A stretch of 49,048 nt of DNA from Oscillospiraceae bacterium. GTDB taxonomy: Bacteria > Bacillota > Clostridia > Oscillospirales > Oscillospiraceae. The stretch lies in NCBI GenBank assembly GCA_031290515.1, contig JAITNK010000098.1:1-49048 (forward strand), written 5' to 3'. Shown here in pieces: positions 98-26,320 of this stretch. Position 1 is the first letter of the stretch. The number at the start of each line of letters is the position of its first letter. A program made the translations under genes and the position numbers. The notes beneath the pieces are model-generated. The model was not told where the DNA came from and ran no database searches. It saw only the letters and a program-made list of their open reading frames with translations.

Positions 98-369
98 TGT
101 TTGTCACTCACTTTCGTAATTACAGTTTGTTTGCGGCTTTAGCTCGCGAGGCAAAACCGCGTTTCGCCGTCGGTACCGTAGTGAATTGTAACACCTGGCT
201 GCGGAAAAGTAAATACTACGCGCGGTTGTATTGGATTCAACCGGATTTCCGCTCCGCCGCAAACTTTACACACATTTTACATTCCTCACATCTGTTCTTT
301 ACCGTTGCGGTTTATGATGAATCCGCAATCAAAAACAAGTCGGCACAACACACATTAAGGGAGGACGTT

Positions 370-1166: not shown

Positions 1167-2351
<1,185 letters not shown>

Positions 2352-8143: not shown

Positions 8144-8695
8144 TTACTCTCCCCCGTTCAGCCACACGGCGAGACTGCGCACTCCCTCAAGCGCGGTCTC
8201 GTCCTCCGCCGCCGGAACCGTGTCGGTGTTCATCGACAGCACGGTGTGCGCGCCGAACCCGGAGGCGTTCATCATTCGGAACAGCACCGCGGACATACGC
8301 ACCGCGCCGTTTTCGTTGCCCTTGCCGCCGCCTACGAGAATCAGCCCCGCGCGTTTCGGGCGCAGTACAAACGGGTCGTTCAGCTCGTACTTCGCGTTGC
8401 GCTGCACCTGAAACCGGCTCGCGATGTTCATCATTTGCCCGGGCAGCGTCGAATAGTACACCGGCGAGGCGATAACGGCATTGTCGAAATCGTCGCCGTA
8501 GATTGCGCGCATATCGTCGTCGATAGCGCAGCCTTTGACCCGCGCGCAGGCGCGGCAGTCCACGCACGGCGACAGCTTCGCGCGGTACGCCGACAGCTCC
8601 GCGACCTCGCCGGAAAGGTGCGCGCGCAGCTCCCGGACGAGCGCGGCGGTGTCGCCGTTCACGCGCGGCGAGCCGTTGATGATGAGCGTTTTCAA
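8144..8695 (-). CDS. Flavodoxin-like fold NAD(P)H-dependent FMN reductase / iron-sulfur flavoprotein family
   Basis: MKTLIINGSPRVNGDT... and a CVDCRAC cysteine cluster. TTG start 8 nt after GGAGG. Confidence 0.8.
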   Translation of the reverse strand: MKTLIINGSPRVNGDTAALVRELRAHLSGEVAELSAYRAKLSPCVDCRACARVKGCAIDDDMRAIYGDDFDNAVIASPVYYSTLPGQMMNIASRFQVQRNAKYELNDPFVLRPKRAGLILVGGGKGNENGAVRMSAVLFRMMNASGFGAHTVLSMNTDTVPAAEDETALEGVRSLAVWLNGGE

Positions 8696-8753
8696 GGGCG
8701 GTACCTCCGTATTGTGGTTTGTGTGCTGTGATTATACCCGGTTTTTGAAATTA

Positions 8754-8809
8754 TTTCAACATATTTCGCAAAACCCCTTGACACGCCCCCCCCCGTCATA
8801 TGTTATTAT
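8754..8809 (+). promoter_or_regulatory. Promoter module A: conserved upstream block, TTGACA, C9 tract, TGtTATTAT (20-nt spacer)
   Basis: TTGACA 8778-8783, CG + C9 (8786-8794) + GTCATATGT, extended -10 TGT-TATTAT 8801-8809. The 24 nt upstream of -35 match the second copy at 26229-26252 (minus) at 20 of 24 positions. Confidence 0.5.
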
Positions 8810-8838
8810 GATATATCAAATATTTGGAGGAATCAGCA

Positions 8839-8925
8839 ATGAAAAAAGCAATCTCTAAGACAGTCTCCCTGCTCCTGGCACTTTTCGCCGCAAACTTGAT
8901 TATTGCGGTTCTTGCCGCCGTGTGA
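8839..8925 (+). CDS. Unannotated 28-aa single-pass membrane peptide (micro-ORF)
   Basis: GGAGG 8826-8830 lies 8 nt before ATG 8839. Product MKKAISKTVSLLLALFAANLIIAVLAAV, stop TGA 8923-8925. Too short for the ORF track. Confidence 0.4.
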   Translation: MKKAISKTVSLLLALFAANLIIAVLAAV

Positions 8926-8955: not shown

Positions 8956-11058
8956 ATGACTAACGTAGAACTGCTCACCTCGCGGTTCGCCGCGCTCCCG
9001 CGCATCGGGGAAACGGGACCGCAGTCCGGCTTCAACGGAAAGCGTATGACCGCGCTCGGGCGGCGTACGCGCCTGATTCACGCCGCGCTGTGCGTAATCG
9101 GGCTTGCGCCGTTTGCGCTGTGGCTGCTGTACCTGCTGAAGCTCGTCAGCTTTAAGGTGCCGCCGCAGCTCGTCGCGGTCGGCTTCGGGCTTGTCGTGCC
9201 GGGCGGCGGCTTCATTGCCTGCGGCGAGCCGGTGACGGTCGCAATCGGACTGTTTATCTGCTTCTGGCTCTGGAAAAAGCGCGGAATGATGATTCAGGAC
9301 TTCCTCGGCAGCTTTATGGGAATCGTCGGGTTCTGGGCGCTCGGCGCAGCCGGCGGACTGCTCGCGTTCGGGTGGTACTCGTGGGACTACGCCGCGTTCG
9401 GTCTCGCGCCTTTCGGCTACGCGCCGTGGGGGTACGCCGCCGCGGTCGGAACCGCGTTCGCGCTGTTCGTGCCGTACGAGCTTCAGGTGCGCCGTATGTA
9501 TAAGCAGATGTCGGCGGCGCGCGACGAGCGTCTGCCGCTGTTCGACGACGCGGTTGCGGAGCTTGACGCGGCGACCGGCGACCGCAGCATTGTCGGAGAA
9601 AAGGAATTCCGGCAAAACGGCGGCGGCGTCCGGAGCGGTGATACGGCGAAAGAACCCGGCGCGGACGAACTCGACGACGAGCAGCTGCTCGCCGCGCGGT
9701 ATCTGCTCGAGGCGACCGTGCGCGAGAAGGGCGACTTCGACGGCTTCGAGCATTTGTTCGGACTCGCCGACTACCGCTATCAGCTCTCGGTGTACGGTTA
9801 CGGGCTTATGCTGCTTCACGCGAAGTATCTGCCGAACTTCGAGGGGTACCTCAAAAAAGCGCACAGATTCCTTATCGAGTCGTACTCCGACCCGCGCACC
9901 TGCGGCTACTGGGCGAAGCAGGCGAAAGTCGGATACCTGTCGAACAACCCCGACCCGATTGTCAAAGCAAACGTAATGCTCTCCGGCTGGATGATGCCGG
10001 TCGTCGCCGGATACCGCGACCAGTACGGCGACGACGAGTACGAGAAAGAGGCTTCGATTCGCTTTCAGCCGTTCGCCGACAAACCGGAAGAGACGTACGA
10101 CTACAACTCCGCGGGCGTGTTCGGCGTACTGTACCGGCAGTATAAGAATCACGAATACCCGTATATGCTCATTCCGTGCGAACCGCACGTCGCGTTTCCC
10201 GCCTGCAACTCCGTCGCGCTGCTCGGTATGCTCGTCTACGACCGCGACCACGGCACGGACTACTGCGCCGGCTTCTGGGACGAACTGTACGACAACCTGC
10301 AGTCCGACTTCATCGAAATCGACGGTACTATGGCTCTGCGCCGGCAGTATCAGTACGGACTGCGGCACCTGCCCTCGTCGCAAATCGGCTATATGCCGCT
10401 CGCGGACGTTCAGAACTATATGCACTTTTCCGCGATATTCCCCGGTCTCGCGAGACGGTGCTACGCGCTCGTGCGGAAGACTCTGCTGTCAATCGACGCA
10501 GACGGCGCGGCGCAGGTGAACGGTCAGCCGTGGGATATGATGTTCAATATGTTCACGATGAAACCCGACCCCTCGACGCAGATCGCGATGCTCGAGCTTA
10601 CCGCCGCGGAGTACGGCGACCTTCCGGTGTACGACGCGCTGCGCGTCGCCGAGTCGCGGTTCCTCGCGAAGAGCAAAGACCCGACCTCGTTCAAGTTTAA
10701 GGACGTAAACTCGCTGACAGTCGCCTATATCGCGCTCGCGCGGCTGATTAAAAAAGGCTACTGGTCGGACGTTATTCTGCGCGGTATGCCGGAGACTTCC
10801 AAAACGGGTCCCGTGCTGACCGACTGTCCGTTCCCGGACGTTATTCCTGCGAAAGCGTCGAGTTCCGGAGACGACCTCGACCTCGTGCTCACGACCTCCG
10901 GCGAGCCGGTCGCCGCCGGAATCAGAATCGAACGCCTAAAGCCGGGCGCGCGGTACGCGTACGGCGCGGGCGCGTTCACTGCGGACGCGGACGGGGCGGC
11001 GACGCTTACCGTCGAAGTCGGACGGCGCACCGCGATACATATCGTTCCGGAGGCGTAA
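8956..11058 (+). CDS. 700-aa membrane protein: about 6 N-terminal TM helices plus a soluble domain of about 500 aa of unassigned family
   Basis: Long ORF with ordinary amino-acid composition, unlike the Arg-rich antisense ORF 8833-10425. Hydrophobic N-terminal 190 aa. I have only a weak unverified impression of an alpha/alpha-toroid-type domain. Confidence 0.75.
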   Translation: MTNVELLTSRFAALPRIGETGPQSGFNGKRMTALGRRTRLIHAALCVIGLAPFALWLLYLLKLVSFKVPPQLVAVGFGLVVPGGGFIACGEPVTVAIGLFICFWLWKKRGMMIQDFLGSFMGIVGFWALGAAGGLLAFGWYSWDYAAFGLAPFGYAPWGYAAAVGTAFALFVPYELQVRRMYKQMSAARDERLPLFDDAVAELDAATGDRSIVGEKEFRQNGGGVRSGDTAKEPGADELDDEQLLAARYLLEATVREKGDFDGFEHLFGLADYRYQLSVYGYGLMLLHAKYLPNFEGYLKKAHRFLIESYSDPRTCGYWAKQAKVGYLSNNPDPIVKANVMLSGWMMPVVAGYRDQYGDDEYEKEASIRFQPFADKPEETYDYNSAGVFGVLYRQYKNHEYPYMLIPCEPHVAFPACNSVALLGMLVYDRDHGTDYCAGFWDELYDNLQSDFIEIDGTMALRRQYQYGLRHLPSSQIGYMPLADVQNYMHFSAIFPGLARRCYALVRKTLLSIDADGAAQVNGQPWDMMFNMFTMKPDPSTQIAMLELTAAEYGDLPVYDALRVAESRFLAKSKDPTSFKFKDVNSLTVAYIALARLIKKGYWSDVILRGMPETSKTGPVLTDCPFPDVIPAKASSSGDDLDLVLTTSGEPVAAGIRIERLKPGARYAYGAGAFTADADGAATLTVEVGRRTAIHIVPEA

Positions 11059-11059
11059 G

Positions 11060-11209
11060 ATGCTGTGCTGTATAATCGCGGCGGCGTTTATCGTGCGCTA
11101 CGTCGCGCGGGCGGGTACGCTCAAACGCTATCTCGGCTTCGGAAGCGACCCGGAGCCGGAGCCGTTCGGCTGGGACGAATACTGCGAGCTTGACGAGTTC
11201 GACAGCTGA
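11060..11209 (+). CDS. Unannotated 49-aa peptide: one TM helix plus an acidic tail
   Basis: GGAGG 11049-11053 lies 6 nt before ATG 11060, one nt after the upstream TAA. Product MLCCIIAAAFIVRYVARAGTLKRYLGFGSDPEPEPFGWDEYCELDEFDS. Its TGA overlaps the next ATG (TGATG). Confidence 0.5.
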   Translation: MLCCIIAAAFIVRYVARAGTLKRYLGFGSDPEPEPFGWDEYCELDEFDS

Positions 11210-12192
11210 TGAAACCTCTCCGAATCGCGGTGGTCGCGGCGTTCTTCGCGTCCGTCGCCGTGACCGCGCTGACGTACGTTTTCCGCCAGGTTCACGCGCT
11301 GCACCCCGCGCACATTGCGCTCACGAACGCGACGTTTTTGCTGATTGCCGCGTATCTCGCAAAGAGCGCGAAGCTTGCGTCGCTCGCGGGACTGCGCGAG
11401 CTTCGCGCGAACTTCCCGCCGTATGACGGGACTGCGTACGGGCGCGAGACCGAGCTTCGCCCGAACAGCGTCGCGCAAACCGACTGTGAAATCACGCGCG
11501 GCGAGGTCGTCTCCGACGAGTCACCGCTTTCCGGACGGCGCGCGCGCGTTACAAAAACCGCCGGCGACAGGCTGTACCGCGGCAGTATAATCGTTTCCGG
11601 CGCGGCGGCGGCGCGCGGAACCCGGCAGCGGCGGTACGTCGCGGACGTTATGCCGGAGGGCGGCGCGGTTTTCAACGTCTGCGCAGCGTTTCTGGCGCGC
11701 AGCGGAATTTATGTGCGCGGCGAATACGTTCTGCGAAACATCGCGCCGTCGCGCAAGCTTACGGTGCGGTGCGCCGGCGCGAACCGCGCCGGACTTGCGA
11801 AAACGCGCGAAACGCTTGAGCGTATGGGCGTTACGCTCGCGCTCGAAGAAACCGGTCCGGAGTCCGAAATCGCGACCGGACGGCAGTACCGGCTCTGCGG
11901 ATTCGCGGAGTTTGATTCGTATCACGACGCCGTAATCACGCACGACAAGATTACGCATCTGCTCAAACTCGTCTACGCCGCAAGGGTTTACCGGCGCGCG
12001 CGTGCACCCGTACGGTTCATAACCGTCGCCGCTGCCGGCTTCGCGTTCGGCGCGCTGTGCGGATTTAAGCTGTTCGCGCTCGCCGCGCTGCCGTTCGCGG
12101 TCGCGGGAGCCGTGCAGCTCGCATTGCTGCGCCGGCTTGAAAAGAACCTCGCGCGGCGCGTCACTTTTGAGCTTGTCGCAAACACAAAGTGA
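11209..12192 (+). CDS. Miniaturised P1B-type-ATPase-derived membrane protein lacking all catalytic motifs
   Basis: DESPLSGRRARVTKTAGDRLYRGSIIVSG resembles DES-LTGES-PV-K-GD-V-G of the A-domain. ARSGIYVRGEYVLRNIAPSRKLTVRCAGA resembles GILIKG...V-FDKTGT. LERMGVTLALEETGPESEIA resembles L...GI..VMLTGDN..TA. DAVITHDKITHLLKLVYAARVYRR resembles DIVL..D.L..I..AI.LSR.T. Flanking TM helices are present. Confidence 0.6.
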   Translation: MKPLRIAVVAAFFASVAVTALTYVFRQVHALHPAHIALTNATFLLIAAYLAKSAKLASLAGLRELRANFPPYDGTAYGRETELRPNSVAQTDCEITRGEVVSDESPLSGRRARVTKTAGDRLYRGSIIVSGAAAARGTRQRRYVADVMPEGGAVFNVCAAFLARSGIYVRGEYVLRNIAPSRKLTVRCAGANRAGLAKTRETLERMGVTLALEETGPESEIATGRQYRLCGFAEFDSYHDAVITHDKITHLLKLVYAARVYRRARAPVRFITVAAAGFAFGALCGFKLFALAALPFAVAGAVQLALLRRLEKNLARRVTFELVANTK

Positions 12193-12495: not shown

Positions 12496-15411
12496 ATGTT
12501 CAAAAAATGGAATCTGAAAGCTAAGATATTCGTTTTTGTCACGGTCGTCGTCGTCGTGTCGCAAATCGCCATTACGTCGATGGTCGCCGCGCAGACGGTC
12601 TCGCTCACGAAGCGAGACGCATACGATCTTGCCGAGGTCACAGCCGAAAAATTTAAGAACGAAATCAAGTCGGAGATACAGGGCGCGCGGATTACAGCCG
12701 AGACTCTCTCGACCGTGATGGAGACGCTCAAGGCGAACGGCGTTAACGACCGCGAGCTGATGAACGAGGTTCTCAAAAACGCGCTCGCGTTCAAGGAGTA
12801 CATTACCGCGTTCTGCGTCGCCTACACCGTGGACGGACTCGACGGTATGGACTCGTTTTACGCCGGAGAGCCGGGTTCCATCTACAGTACAGACGGGCGT
12901 TACGCGCCCTACTGGAACAAGTTCGGCGACAGCATTGACGTGGAACCGCTTCAGGAAGCCTATCTCGACGAAGGCGTCACGCTCGACCAAGTTCCCGCGC
13001 TTCAGGAAGCCGGTCTCCCCTACGGTCAGACGCTTGACGAGCAGGACTGGTGGTACGTCCCCGAAGCAAACTGGGAAAACGGCGTCGTCGAATACATTAC
13101 GGAGCCTTACGCGTTTATGCTTCAGGGACAGAACGTCATTCTCGAAAGTCTGATTTTCTCTTTCGGCGACGCGGACGGCAATTTCCTCGGTCTCGTCTCG
13201 TCCGACATTGTGCTTGAGAACTTCCAGGCTATGGTAGAGCGCGTTAACCCGCAGAGTCAGGGCGGCTTTACCGAGATTTTCTCCAACGCCGGTTTCGTAA
13301 TCGCGCACCCGGACAGAGAGTACCTCGGTACGGACATCGAGGACGTGCTGAACGGCAGCGGCGACGCGTCCGCCGCCGCGAGCCTCGGCGACGTGAGAGC
13401 CGCGATTGCCGCCGGCGAATCCTATATTCACAGCGGAACCGACTATTACACCGTCTATATGCCGATCAGCTTCAGCGATGTCACCACGCCGTGGTCTGTC
13501 GCCGTGAGTATTCCTATGTCGGAAGTGCTCGGCAAAGCCGCGTCTATCAGAAACTACATTCTGACGATTTCGGCGATTGCCGCCGTCATAGTGATTGCGG
13601 TGCTGTACTTCATCTCGAGGAATATCACAGCCCCGATACTCGCGCTCGCGGACGCCGCGAAAGTCCTCGGCGACGGCAACTTCGAGGCGGAGATTCCGAG
13701 TACGGACGCGGGCGGCGAAATCGGCGTGCTTGCCCGCGCGGCAAAGTCTATGGCGGAGAAAATCAGCGACCTCGTCACAAAACTGCGTCACAACGCAGAA
13801 GAGCTTGAGGACAAGAACCGCAGTCTCGTCGCGCTCAACCTCGAGCTTGTAGAGGCTAAAGACCGCGCCGAAAGCTCAAACCGCGCAAAGAGCGACTTCC
13901 TGTCTAATATGTCGCACGAAATGCGCACGCCGCTCAACGCAATCATCGGTATGACCGCAATCGGCAAGCGCGCTCCGGATACCGAGAAGAAAGACTATTC
14001 GTTCGGCAAAATCGAGAACGCGTCCGCGCACCTGCTCGGCGTTATCAGCGATATTCTCGATATGTCCAAAATCTAGGCGAACAAGCTCGAACTCTCGCCG
14101 CTTGATTTCAGTCTCGACAAGGTCATTCAAAAGGTCTCCAACGTCATCGGATTCCGGGTCGAGGAGAAGAACGTCGCGTTCCGCGTCTCGGTCGATAAGG
14201 CTATCCCGCAGCGAATCGTCGGGGACGACCAGCGGCTCGCGCAGGTGCTTACGAATCTGCTGTCAAACGCCGTGAAATTCACTCCGGAGGACGGCGAGGT
14301 GTCGCTCGGCGTTACGCTGCTCGCGGAAAACGATTCGCTGTGCCGGCTGCAATTCTCCGTTACCGACAACGGTATCGGAATCAGCGCGGAACAGCAGACG
14401 CGTCTGTTCACGTCGTTCCAGCAGGCGGACAATTCCACCTCGCGGCGGTTCGGCGGCACCGGACTCGGTCTGTCAATCTCCAAGCGCATCGTCGAGCTTA
14501 TGGGCGGCGACATTCGCGTCGAGTCGGAACTCGGACACGGTTCCGTGTTCACCTTTACGATTAACGCGGAGCGCGGCAAAGCCGACCACCCGAGTCTGCT
14601 GAACCCCGGCGTGAACTGGAAAAACGTAAGCATACTCGCGGTGGACGACGACCCGGAGACGCTTGCGTACTTCCGCGAACTTGCGCTGACGCTCGGAATA
14701 AAGCTCGACGCGGCTTCCGATGCGGAAGAGGCGCGCGCGATACTCGACCGCGGCGTTCTGCACGACATTTATTTCCTCGACTATAAAATGCCGGGTATGA
14801 GCGGTCTCGAACTTTGCCGGACGATTAAGGACTCGCGCGCCGACAAAACCGCGGTCGCGATTATCTCCGCCGCCGACTGGAGCTCAATCTCGGAACACGC
14901 GAAAACCGCCGGCGTCGATCGCTTTGTCTCAAAACCGCTGCACTCGTCCGACATTGAGGACTGCATAAACGAATTCCTCGGCAACACCGCTCCGGCGGAG
15001 GAAACCGCTTCGGACGACGAGCCGGACAACTTCAAAGGACACACGATTCTGCTCGCGGAGGACGTTGAGATTAACCGCGAAATCGTCGTCGCGCTGCTTG
15101 AGCCGACGGAGGTTACTGTGGACTGCGCCGAAAACGGCGCGGAAGCCGTCCGCCTGTTTACGGAGAACCCGGAACGCTACGACCTGATTCTTATGGACGT
15201 GCAAATGCCGCAGATGGACGGACTTGAGGCGACGCGCGTCATACGCGCGCTTGACGTTCCGGAGGCGAAAACCGTCCCGATAGTCGCGCTTACGGCGAAC
15301 GTATTCCGCGACGATGTTGAAAAGTGCCGCGAAGCCGGTATGAACAGTCATCTCGGCAAGCCGCTGATTCTCGACGCGCTGCTCGCGGAGCTTCGCAAGT
15401 ACTGCGTGTAG
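12496..15411 (+). pseudogene. Hybrid sensor histidine kinase (TM, dCache, HAMP, HisKA, HATPase_c, 2 x REC) interrupted by one in-frame TAG at 14074-14076
   Basis: Track ORFs 12496-14076 and 14245-15411 are in the same frame. Reading through gives [19 protein letters not shown], where kinases have SKIEAGKLEL. H-box [14 protein letters not shown]-box LLSNAVKFT, G-boxes, and two receiver domains (ILAVDDD..., ILLAEDVEINREI...DLILMDVQMPQMDG). Confidence 0.75.
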
Positions 15412-24955: not shown

Positions 24956-24989
24956 CATTCCCCCGCGGACTTCGGTCCGCGGGGGAATG
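24956..24989. terminator. Bidirectional terminator (perfect 15-bp stem)
   Basis: CATTCCCCCGCGGAC-TTCG-GTCCGCGGGGGAATG, flanked by A5 upstream and TTT downstream. Lies between the convergent stops at 24949 and 25006. Confidence 0.8.
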
Positions 24990-25005
24990 TTTGGTCGTAC
25001 GACTG

Positions 25006-25695
25006 TTATTGACTGTATCCGCTTTTGAATCTATCAAGCATTGCCTTGGCAAGAGTACTGTCTGCGGTGTTGGTTTTGACATTAACAGCATTTTCCAAAA
25101 TCTGAAGCGACTGTTGATTTGTCAGGTAACGGAACAAACCCGACCTCCAACTATCTGCGGTACTGTTTGAGGTTTGATAGAAGTCCCAATAATTGAAATT
25201 CTGCTTTTCATCGATACTGAACTTGAGTCTGTTTTCAGAACTGCTTGCGACGTATCCCTCGCTATTTCTGTCACCAACAGAACAGTCGTCGATAAGAAAA
25301 AGCGCAAAAACTTTACGGTCTTTCTCGGCTGCATACCGCTCGAGAGTCGTCAGAACGCATAAGCCGCCGACCTTTGCACCTTTGATTCTGCGCTTACTAT
25401 CGTTCTCAATATCTATCCCCGCGCGCATTCTCCAGTCAACGAGCAATGTGCTTTCGTAACACAAAAATTTTTCTTGTGAAAGTTGTTCATATTCGATTTC
25501 ACGTTTGATATAACGAGAGCAGGCACTTTCCGAACACCACCGGCGTTTGGCTGTATAAATATTGTAATGGATGTTATCATTTGAGCAGACGCCGTTGAAT
25601 CCGAATTCACCGTTCCCGCGTCCGCCGTCGCAAAAGTTGCACTTGAATGCAATGCCGCCGCGGCTGCGGTTTGCATTATTGTTTGAAATTACCAT
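25006..25695 (-). CDS. 229-aa cytoplasmic Cys-rich orphan protein (no family recognised)
   Basis: AAGGAGG lies 7 nt before ATG 25695. N-terminal cysteines form C-x2-C ... C ... C-x4-C (FKCNFCDGG...VCSND...WCSESAC). Sits in low-G+C DNA. Confidence 0.7.
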   Translation of the reverse strand: MVISNNNANRSRGGIAFKCNFCDGGRGNGEFGFNGVCSNDNIHYNIYTAKRRWCSESACSRYIKREIEYEQLSQEKFLCYESTLLVDWRMRAGIDIENDSKRRIKGAKVGGLCVLTTLERYAAEKDRKVFALFLIDDCSVGDRNSEGYVASSSENRLKFSIDEKQNFNYWDFYQTSNSTADSWRSGLFRYLTNQQSLQILENAVNVKTNTADSTLAKAMLDRFKSGYSQ

Positions 25696-25726
25696 TGTTG
25701 TTCCTCCTTATATATTTGCCGCGCGG

Positions 25727-26143
25727 TTAGAAAAACTCGACCGAACCTGTATAAGTAAATGTATCGCCCTTATAACCGGTGACTTGTATCGCCACTCCGA
25801 AATACTGTCTTACCGTTGCGCCAAAGCTGTTTTGAGAATCGACATATCCGAGGACAAGCCATTCGTCTGTTGTGATTTCAGTAACTTCCCATCCGCCGAA
25901 TTTGGCTGTAGAAGGACTCGTCAATCGTTTCTCTATCTCAGATTTCGCTGTGCCTACCGCGGTGTATTTATCGAACTTTTGACTGCTCGGGCTGCTCGGG
26001 CTGCTCGGGCTGCTCGAACTGCTTTGGTTATTCACCTCAGCAACATACCACACCATAGTCACAACAAAAAGGACAAAAAGGACAATTATAAGGCTGACAC
26101 AGCAACCGTAGAGTCCGCTTTTTTTTGGCGTGTTTTCGTTCAC
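25727..26143 (-). CDS. 138-aa N-terminally anchored membrane protein with a Ser/Pro linker and a small extracytoplasmic domain
   Basis: GTG start 7 nt after AAGGGGG. TM helix LYGCCVSLIIVLFVLFVVTMVWYV, an SSSSSPSSPSSPSS linker, and a C-terminal domain of about 80 aa. Confidence 0.7.
   Translation of the reverse strand: MNENTPKKSGLYGCCVSLIIVLFVLFVVTMVWYVAEVNNQSSSSSPSSPSSPSSQKFDKYTAVGTAKSEIEKRLTSPSTAKFGGWEVTEITTDEWLVLGYVDSQNSFGATVRQYFGVAIQVTGYKGDTFTYTGSVEFF
25983..26021. repeat. 9-bp tandem repeat (CTGCTCGGG x3, plus a degenerate fourth unit) encoding the (SSP)n linker
   Basis: Direct reading: CTGCTCGGG CTGCTCGGG CTGCTCGGG CTGCTCGAA CTGC. Confidence 0.85.
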
Positions 26144-26196
26144 TGCATTTCCCCCTTGATTTTGTACGTAACTGCGCCGCCGCTGTACGCGAAGCT

Positions 26197-26252
26197 ATTA
26201 TACCACAAATAGGGGGGGGGGCTGTCAAGCGGTTCTGTGAAATTTGTTGAAA
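26197..26252 (-). promoter_or_regulatory. Promoter module B: conserved upstream block, TTGACA, C10 tract, TGgTATAAT (20-nt spacer)
   Basis: Minus strand reads TTTCAACAAATTTCACAGAACCGC-TTGACA-G-C10-TATTTGTGG-TATAAT. The G10 run on the plus strand is at 26212-26221. Confidence 0.5.
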
Positions 26253-26263
26253 ATATCTGTATA

Positions 26264-26320
26264 ACAAAAGCCGCGCCTTTCGGCGCGGCTGATAAACAAA
26301 CGCAGACCCTCGCGGTCTGC
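26264..26320 (-). terminator. Tandem terminator hairpins after the PNPOx-family gene
   Basis: Minus strand: GCAGACC-GCGAG-GGTCTGC followed by GTTTGTTT, then AGCCGCGCC-GAAA-GGCGCGGCT followed by TTTTGTT. Confidence 0.65.

Follow-up and report, generated by a model that had tools for sequence, protein, structure and literature searches.

Two promoters with C9 and C10 tracts in 20-nucleotide spacers on an Oscillospiraceae contig are candidates for tuning by replication slippage

The stretch of DNA analyzed here, contig JAITNK010000098.1 of the Oscillospiraceae bacterium assembly GCA_031290515.1 (49,048 nucleotides (nt), hereafter the window), is an ordinary, Oscillospiraceae-like piece of chromosome with a guanine-plus-cytosine (GC) content of 60% that carries metK, an extracytoplasmic function (ECF) sigma factor gene, ATP-binding cassette (ABC) transporter genes, HPr, purB, guaA and ackA. 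The nearest homologues of its proteins are 66-70% identical and come from Oscillospiraceae metagenome-assembled genomes. Two predicted promoters within it, module A (8754-8809, plus strand) and module B (26252-26197, minus strand), each hold a long run of C residues between the -35 and -10 boxes, and it is the nature of these runs and their possible role in tuning promoter output that is considered here. The features of both modules and of the genes that follow them are collected in Table 1.

The coordinates and layout that the initial annotation had given for the two modules were confirmed on the sequence. In both modules the C tract starts 1-2 nt after a perfect TTGACA, the spacer is 20 nt long, and the -10 box is TG-extended (TATGt in A, TGTGg in B). 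The 24-nt blocks upstream of the two -35 boxes agree at 20 of 24 positions, and in both blocks ATTTC recurs about every 10 nt, as had been described. At a distance of 17 nt from the -10 boxes there is no alternative -35 box upstream, the hexamers found there being ACACGC in A and ACAGCC in B. The 30-nt degenerate pattern put forward in the initial annotation has only two sites in the window, which are the modules themselves, and none in 100 shuffled sequences. A third copy of the upstream block was not found in the window, and a window-wide repeat search returned nothing further that was related to the modules.

Table 1. Positions of the promoter elements of modules A and B and of the adjoining genes and terminators in the window (aa, amino acids)
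Feature	Position	Strand	Basis or remark
Module A upstream A/T-rich block TTTCAACATATTTCGCAAAACCCC, UP-element-like (about -59 to -36)	8754-8777	+	read from sequence
Module A -35 hexamer TTGACA, perfect	8778-8783	+	sequence, hexamer scan
Module A spacer, 20 nt: CG + C9 + GTCATATGT	8784-8803	+	
Module A C9 homopolymer, candidate slippage tract	8786-8794	+	homopolymer listing of window
Module A -16 TRTG motif and extended -10, TATGtTATTAT; TG at 8801-8802	8799-8809	+	
Module A -10 box TATTAT	8804-8809	+	
Divergent promoter TTGAAA-17-TATAAT of the flavin mononucleotide (FMN)-reductase gene (8695..8144)	8731-8759	-	hexamer scan, annotation
28-aa hydrophobic (transmembrane) small open reading frame MKKAISKTVSLLLALFAANLIIAVLAAV, first gene after module A	8839-8925	+	GGAGG ribosome-binding site 8826-8830
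700-aa membrane protein with linalool dehydratase/isomerase-like (Ldi) domain	8956-11058	+	Pfam PF18566, E=2e-53
49-aa and 327-aa genes completing the module A operon; 327-aa product a fragment-like E1-E2 ATPase	11060-12192	+	
Module B upstream A/T-rich block TTTCAACAAATTTCACAGAACCGC	26252-26229	-	read from sequence
Module B -35 hexamer TTGACA, perfect	26228-26223	-	sequence, hexamer scan
Module B spacer, 20 nt: G + C10 + TATTTGTGG	26222-26203	-	
Module B C10 homopolymer (G10 on the plus strand), candidate slippage tract	26221-26212	-	homopolymer listing
Module B TRTG motif and extended -10, TGTGgTATAAT, perfect -10; TG at 26205-26204	26207-26197	-	
Module B -10 box TATAAT	26202-26197	-	
Terminator of upstream gene, bounding module B on its 5' side	26269-26290	-	
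138-aa protein, first gene of module B: N-terminal transmembrane anchor, Ser/Pro linker, small C-terminal domain	25727-26143	-	
229-aa Cys-rich cytoplasmic protein, second gene of the module B cassette	25006-25695	-	
Strong intrinsic terminator ending the module B operon	24956-24989	-	

The C9 and C10 tracts are the sole G/C homopolymers in the window that reach at least 7 nt. Of runs of 4, 5 and 6 nt, the window contains 75, 16 and 3 of C and 37, 5 and 1 of G, respectively, a drop of about 4.5-fold for each extra base, and no run lies between 6 and 9. Under a first-order Markov model, 0.07 G/C runs of at least 9 nt are expected in the window, against the 2 observed, both of which follow a perfect -35 box. 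The two tracts are thus outliers against the run-length spectrum of the window, and each module places a homopolymer of at least about 8 nt between its -35 and -10 boxes, as homopolymer-controlled promoters do. Homopolymers are error-prone, in long-read assemblies especially, and a sequencing or assembly artefact might have produced the tracts or their lengths. We find this barely credible, as the tracts are internal, have unique flanks and occupy the same promoter position at two loci, the neighbouring open reading frames are mostly intact, the architecture recurs in many independent assemblies (see below), and an error of one base in either direction would leave the spacers over-long.

The spacer length is likewise unusual for the window. 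A promoter scan that required at least 5 of 6 matches in each hexamer gave 8 sites with a spacer of 17 nt, 3 with 16 nt and 1 with 18 nt. The initial annotation had stated that 12 other promoters in the window all have exactly 17 nt, which is too strong, but the contrast with the modules that it drew from this is real. The scan also returned a few weak sites with spacers of 19-23 nt, mostly intragenic or re-readings of one -35 box; the only sites in the window that combine a 20-nt spacer with near-perfect hexamers (11-12 of 12 positions) and a TG extension are A and B.

The upstream block, by comparison with other genomes, is commonplace. It is rich in A and T, has a run of T near -50 and one of A near -42, shows the sequence features of an UP element and lines up with the UP consensus, AAAWWTWTTTTNNNAAA. 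Scanning one genome per species with the pattern ATTTCNCANAACCNCTTGACA, which fixed 17 of the block's bases, gave at least 118 loci, mostly in Clostridia, Oscillospiraceae or Ruminococcus and some in Chloroflexota; the part matched at these promoters corresponds to the proximal 15 nt of the module A block. Among the matches listed, 84 were distinct, lacked a tract and had a recognisable -10 box, and their spacers measured 17 nt in 69 cases and 16-18 nt in 74. The consensus of these 84 promoters is aaattttt.aAaAAATTTC.CAAAACCcCTTGACA, which, extended over the free positions, becomes aaattttt.aAaAAATTTC.CAAAACCcCTTGACAAA...atgTg.TATAAT. A tRNA gene stands directly downstream at no fewer than 7 of the 60 loci checked (L006, L028, L053, L061, L062, L072 and L075). 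The layout that recurs in L004-L121, among the matches listed, is aaAAATTTCnCAAAACCyCTTGACAaa, a 17-nt spacer and tgTGnTATAAT. The UP element of stable-RNA promoters (Escherichia coli rrnB P1 type) resembles the module block at the sequence level in being A/T-rich and in standing at consensus promoters, tRNA promoters included. Judged from sequence alone, then, the block is a generic, UP-element-like feature of strong promoters and not a special activator site. With the upstream block generic, the C tract is left as the only abnormal element of the modules.

This bears directly on the second of the two explanations in the initial annotation, an activator bound to the direct repeats, for which it had itself named the generic occurrence of the block as a refutation. 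A regulon-specific activator (for example of the OmpR/PhoB or LytTR type) that sits on the 10-nt-phased ATTTC repeats and is required by the long spacer now appears very improbable, even though such repeats are present in both modules, the distal 9-mer of the block (TTTCAACAW) matches between A and B at 8 of 9 positions, and 3.5 kb downstream of module A there is a gene for a hybrid histidine kinase. The loci counted above all have the proximal repeat and the -35 box as a generic block, about 80% of those listed having a 17-nt spacer and tRNA promoters being among them, and the generic consensus itself holds phased A/T runs, which account for the apparent direct repeats. Activator-dependent promoters normally have a poor -35 box, and those of the modules are perfect; the neighbouring genes include none for a DNA-binding response regulator, and the kinase is a receiver-only hybrid that is split by a stop codon; nor does the window hold a third copy of the block. 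Only in the distal 9-mer do the blocks of A and B resemble each other more than those of generic promoters usually do, a match of this quality being found in 0.5% of generic promoter pairs, and the 9-mer recurs in identical form in one unrelated genome (L006). The modules do not fit a response-regulator promoter of the OmpR/PhoB or LytTR/AgrA class, the repeats being generic, the -35 box perfect and no DNA-binding regulator being found nearby. A CodY box was also tried by hand alignment in the upstream block, but the agreement of 12/15 in B fell to only 10/15 in A and was judged to be a by-product of A/T richness.

Tracts of this kind are not confined to the window. Among the 119 generic matches listed, two low-GC Clostridia reference genomes carry a G run in the spacer of a consensus promoter, G9 with a 16-nt spacer in L036 (about 6690) and G10 with a 21-nt spacer in L098 (about 1962). 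The 0.82 Mb of mostly Clostridia DNA around the listed promoters contains 3 G/C runs of 8 nt or longer, 2 of which are these spacers, a roughly 800-fold enrichment of G/C tracts in promoter spacers. A metagenome scan with the pattern AACCNCTTGACAN{0,6}CCCCCCCC returned 87 loci, which make up about 20 independent clusters with a good -10 box and a run of at least 8 C just after the -35 box. The spacers of these clusters extend from 13 to 22 nt. A 17-nt spacer occurs in 1 of the 20, as opposed to 69 of the 84 tract-less listed matches under identical criteria (Fisher p=1e-10), and 20 nt is among the commoner values, with 3 of the 20 clusters in addition to the two window modules.

That most tract promoters in other organisms also stand at non-optimal spacing is compatible with static, detuned promoters, in which a past expansion of the C run left weak constitutive transcription from the extended -10 element and the tract is a tolerated accident. 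Both modules do carry a TRTGn extended -10, and elements of this type can function without a -35 box in Gram-positive promoters. We nevertheless hold this explanation to be unlikely. It needs two independent accidents of like kind at the same position in 49 kb that are otherwise without a G/C run longer than 6, and it would leave the perfect TTGACA and the UP-like blocks, which have been kept, without a use. The enrichment of tracts in spacers elsewhere also speaks against it, and a run of 9 or 10 C is intrinsically unstable and would generate heterogeneity anyway.

Tract length was found to differ between closely related loci. In 23 human-gut contigs (L122, L125, L128, L132, L140, L144, L146, L147, L155 and others), whose upstream flanks are mostly 93-100% identical, a promoter of the form TTGACA-(T/CT/TT)-C8-10-GATGTAAAAT precedes a lipoprotein gene (MKAFKKICTALMLLAFAFVFASCSNG...). 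The tract is C8 in 2 of these contigs, C9 in 17 and C10 in 4, thus differing between samples, the prefix varies between T, CT and TT, and the implied spacers measure 13-16 nt and never 17. The contigs L137, L157 and L184, which are 98.4-99.8% identical, have tracts of C11, C10 and C8, respectively. The first genes after tract promoters encode mostly lipoproteins, signal-peptide proteins, prepilin-like proteins, a repeat-rich secreted protein and a surface-sugar enzyme. Variable tracts ahead of genes for surface and secreted proteins are the signature of contingency promoters.

The explanation that we consider probable, if only somewhat so, is that A and B are slipped-strand, length-tunable contingency promoters, present in this assembly at a low-output length. 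Each module would be a near-consensus promoter of the housekeeping sigma factor (sigma-A/sigma-70 type), made up of the UP-like block, TTGACA and the TRTGn extended -10, in which the -35 and -10 boxes are kept 20 nt apart by a hypermutable C9 or C10 run directly after the -35 box. By replication slippage the run would lengthen or shorten this distance in steps of 1 bp, and one population would thereby come to contain cells with promoters of differing strength, as with contingency, phase-variable or rheostat promoters. With a 20-nt spacer, the contacts at the -35 box and the UP-like block would be misaligned by about 100 degrees and 1 nm and, since no alternative -35 box is available at 17 nt, the extended -10 alone would be left to give basal transcription; contraction to 19, 18 and 17 nt would raise output step by step. 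The genes placed under such control would be accessory membrane or surface genes, namely the 28-aa peptide and the Ldi operon in the case of A and a low-GC cassette in the case of B.

Slipped-strand phase variation was the first explanation offered in the initial annotation, and it is the best supported, indirectly, by the outlier tracts, the recurring architecture, the scattered spacers and the strain-level polymorphism at analogous loci; for this organism itself we infer both the variation of the tracts and the control of output by their length. Less satisfactory is the accompanying idea that losing three C residues restores the 17-nt spacer. This is awkward because the 17-nt optimum would then fall at C6/C7, tract lengths that slip slowly, and graded tuning between 18 and 21 nt therefore seems to us more plausible than clean ON/OFF switching.

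Several observations weigh against slippage-tuned promoters. Slippage at the C6/C7 that a 17-nt optimum needs is much slower than at the present lengths, and classical switches have their optimum at a long tract. The genes under control are not surface antigens of the classical type. Nor did the search for relatives yield direct evidence that these two tracts vary in length: look-ups of exact matches to the proteins of three window genes showed no other strain on record, the protein collection held no close relatives of the window proteins (the nearest are 66% and 70% identical), and the window loci were absent from the metagenome collection. In the nearest relative of the flanking ABC gene (L211, 70% identity), synteny is gone beyond the ABC pair, and the 30-nt pattern had no matches in viral contigs. 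Part of the tract variation seen among assemblies could be homopolymer error. A and B also share an identical geometry, 11 G/C-only bases followed by 9 bases to make 20 nt, which two tracts drifting independently need not do. Finally, two freshwater-sediment contigs of 66-68% GC, L126 (about 1728-1753, minus strand) and L196 (about 128-153, minus strand), both read TTGACA-ac(a/g)ctg-C10-gTGgTACAAT ahead of a prepilin-like (DUF1559-type) gene; they are only 88-93% identical overall, yet C10 and the 20-nt spacer are present in both, a pair that hints at conservation of length.

The last two observations are what a fixed-geometry class of promoter would lead one to expect, in which a 20-nt spacer holding about 10 bp of oligo(dC)·oligo(dG) is a functional design with its tract length under purifying selection, either through use of the A-like, stiff structure of the tract or through a protein that recognises the tract or the sequence next to the -35 box and realigns the -35 and -10 boxes as MerR- and AgrA-type regulators do on 19-20 nt. 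The 11+9 spacers of A and B are identical in this respect though their flanking bases differ, L126 and L196 agree in tract, spacer and TGgTACAAT, 20 nt is among the commoner spacers of the tract clusters, and the distal 9-mers of A and B are closer to each other than those of 99.5% of generic pairs. We judge a fixed geometry to be distinctly unlikely all the same, in view of the spread of tract promoters elsewhere over 13-22 nt without clustering at 20 and of the near-identical loci that differ in tract length. The spacers, moreover, share no dyad symmetry, and no gene for a MerR, LytTR or OmpR-type regulator lies near A or B. A particular form of this idea, to which we give slightly less credence again, is that about 10 bp of oligo(dC) after a consensus -35 box, within a fixed 20-nt spacer, is an element recognised by an unknown factor or as non-B DNA and is conserved in length; it is suggested by the identical 11+9 arrangement of A and B and by the retention of C10 and 20 nt in L126 and L196 at about 10% divergence. 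We know of no poly-C-specific transcription activator in bacteria.

As slippage-tuned promoters, the modules would work like the known family of homopolymer phase-variable promoters, of which their anatomy and statistics make them candidate members. In Neisseria meningitidis, porA has a poly-G tract between its -35 and -10 boxes and graded expression (PMC3639595), and opc has a poly-C promoter (Sarkari 1994, cited in PMC5084427). These promoters resemble the modules in having a G/C homopolymer of about 9-14 nt between the -35 and -10 boxes of a sigma-70-type promoter, the length of which sets the spacer; in porA and opc it thereby also governs how strongly the gene is expressed, by degrees and not strictly ON/OFF, and their targets are envelope proteins. 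The optimum of porA is a long tract (11G), whereas the long tracts of the modules give 20 nt, which is 3 above the optimum; the window also differs from these systems in that its host is an uncultured, Gram-positive-type gut anaerobe. In Bordetella pertussis, the fim2, fim3 and fimX promoters contain a C-stretch in which one-base changes alter transcription and whose length differs among strains (PMC1891110). Here too a poly-C run separates an upstream element from the -10 box at longer-than-canonical spacing, but the fim promoters need BvgA and a "fim box" and have no consensus -35 box, whereas the modules have a perfect -35 box and a generic block, and the fim tracts (C10-C18) are longer than those of the modules.

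Homopolymer length in or near the core promoter also tunes RNA polymerase contacts in the poly-A spacers of the Mycoplasma hyorhinis vlp genes. A T-tract acts as a rheostat at the sabA promoter of Helicobacter pylori (PMC2715451). These differ from the modules in being A/T tracts in AT-rich genomes and, for sabA, in lying upstream of the -35 box. Over-long spacers that depend on an activator are known from the MerR family (19-20 bp) and from agr P3 of Staphylococcus aureus (20 bp), which share with the modules a 20-nt spacer between recognisable -35 and -10 boxes. The dyad in the spacer that goes with MerR and the LytTR direct repeats beside a weak -35 box that go with AgrA are absent from the modules. 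A MerR-type mechanism was therefore rejected, as the spacers hold no dyad and no MerR gene was among the genes scanned, leaving only the 19-20-bp spacer as a common feature.

In the literature searched, switches with a homopolymer in the spacer are described for Neisseria, Bordetella, Helicobacter and Mycobacterium but not for Oscillospiraceae or other Clostridia, and work on phase variation in gut commensals is centred on invertible promoters (invertons). The mechanism is already well known in pathogens and will not surprise a specialist; what is new, as far as this search shows, is the clade. If the tracts vary, uncultured gut Clostridia would also use slippage-tuned promoters for membrane and surface genes, and horizontally acquired, possibly phage-related cassettes would be among the genes diversified in expression. 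The combination of the generic block, TTGACA and a G/C run of at least 8 is a searchable signature that finds many metagenome candidates, mostly before genes for lipoproteins or secreted proteins.

Module A is sited in the intergenic region between divergent genes. The -35 box of the divergent FMN-reductase promoter overlaps the first bases of module A, TTTCAA being the reverse complement of TTGAAA, and an equivalent divergent promoter is absent at module B. Each module also contains an inverted repeat with one arm on either side of the -35 box and tract, AACATAT...ATATGTT in A (8758-8764 and 8798-8804, arms 33 nt apart) and ACAAAT...ATTTGT in B (26247-26242 and 26210-26205, arms 31 nt apart). 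The arms are 6-7 nt long, and the single variable base changes on both arms. As a shared element these repeats were discarded, their arms being out of register (33 versus 31 nt), and they are probably due to chance in A/T-rich DNA. Leader RNA structure was not indicated downstream of either promoter (z-scores of about 0), and no Rfam families or tRNAs were found in the window.

The initial annotation had both modules driving small membrane-protein genes, which describes the 28-aa hydrophobic reading frame of A and the anchored 138-aa protein of B but leaves out the operon of the 700-aa membrane protein downstream of A and the 229-aa cytoplasmic protein of B. Homologues of the 700-aa Ldi protein are at most 66% identical. 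The order of the three larger genes of the module A operon is kept in the orthologous loci L001-L003 (60-66% identity), which have no module, no C tract and no 28-aa reading frame and therefore give no comparative information on the tract. Beyond the operon, the hybrid histidine kinase gene (12496-15411, plus strand) encodes dCache-HAMP-HisKA and HATPase domains and two receivers. It is split by an in-frame TAG at 14074-14076, which replaces the conserved Glu of the motif D-x-SKIE-xGK-LEL (the protein reads DMSKI*ANKLEL) and could be explained by a nonsense mutation in a pseudogene, by a sequencing error or by read-through at this codon.

The module B operon (25000-26260) forms a low-GC island of 42-48% against 60-65% in its flanks, and on account of this difference the cassette was probably acquired horizontally. 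Its proteins gave no significant family in Pfam, NCBIfam or PADLOC. In the 138-aa gene the Ser/Pro (SSP) linker is encoded by a perfect in-frame tandem repeat of 9 nt x 3.8 (25983-26016), and another perfect in-frame 9-nt repeat (x2.4) lies inside the transmembrane segment (26064-26085); these repeats are a second potential source of slippage in this gene. Distant homologues of the C-terminal domain of the 138-aa protein occur in Clostridium phage phiCT453B, between the tail genes and the tape measure gene, and in Enterocloster phage PMBT24, and a homologue of the 229-aa protein occurs in the human-faecal phage contig MT835621. Homologues of the 229-aa protein, a Clostridia family, have invariant Cys54, Cys59 and Cys79 and invariant Leu187, Arg189 and Tyr190 in an LFRY stretch. 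An AlphaFold (AF2) model of this protein, with a predicted local distance difference test (pLDDT) score of 91, gave weak but mutually consistent PDB matches to the YTH-like domain at the N terminus of McrB (E=0.02) and to YTH and ASCH domains, and on the strength of these matches the protein may possibly be a PUA-like reader of modified bases or nucleic acid. Its homologues in L209 and L210 (at most 48% identical) stand in other contexts and do not have the promoter in common; the one in L210 adjoins a type I restriction HsdR gene.

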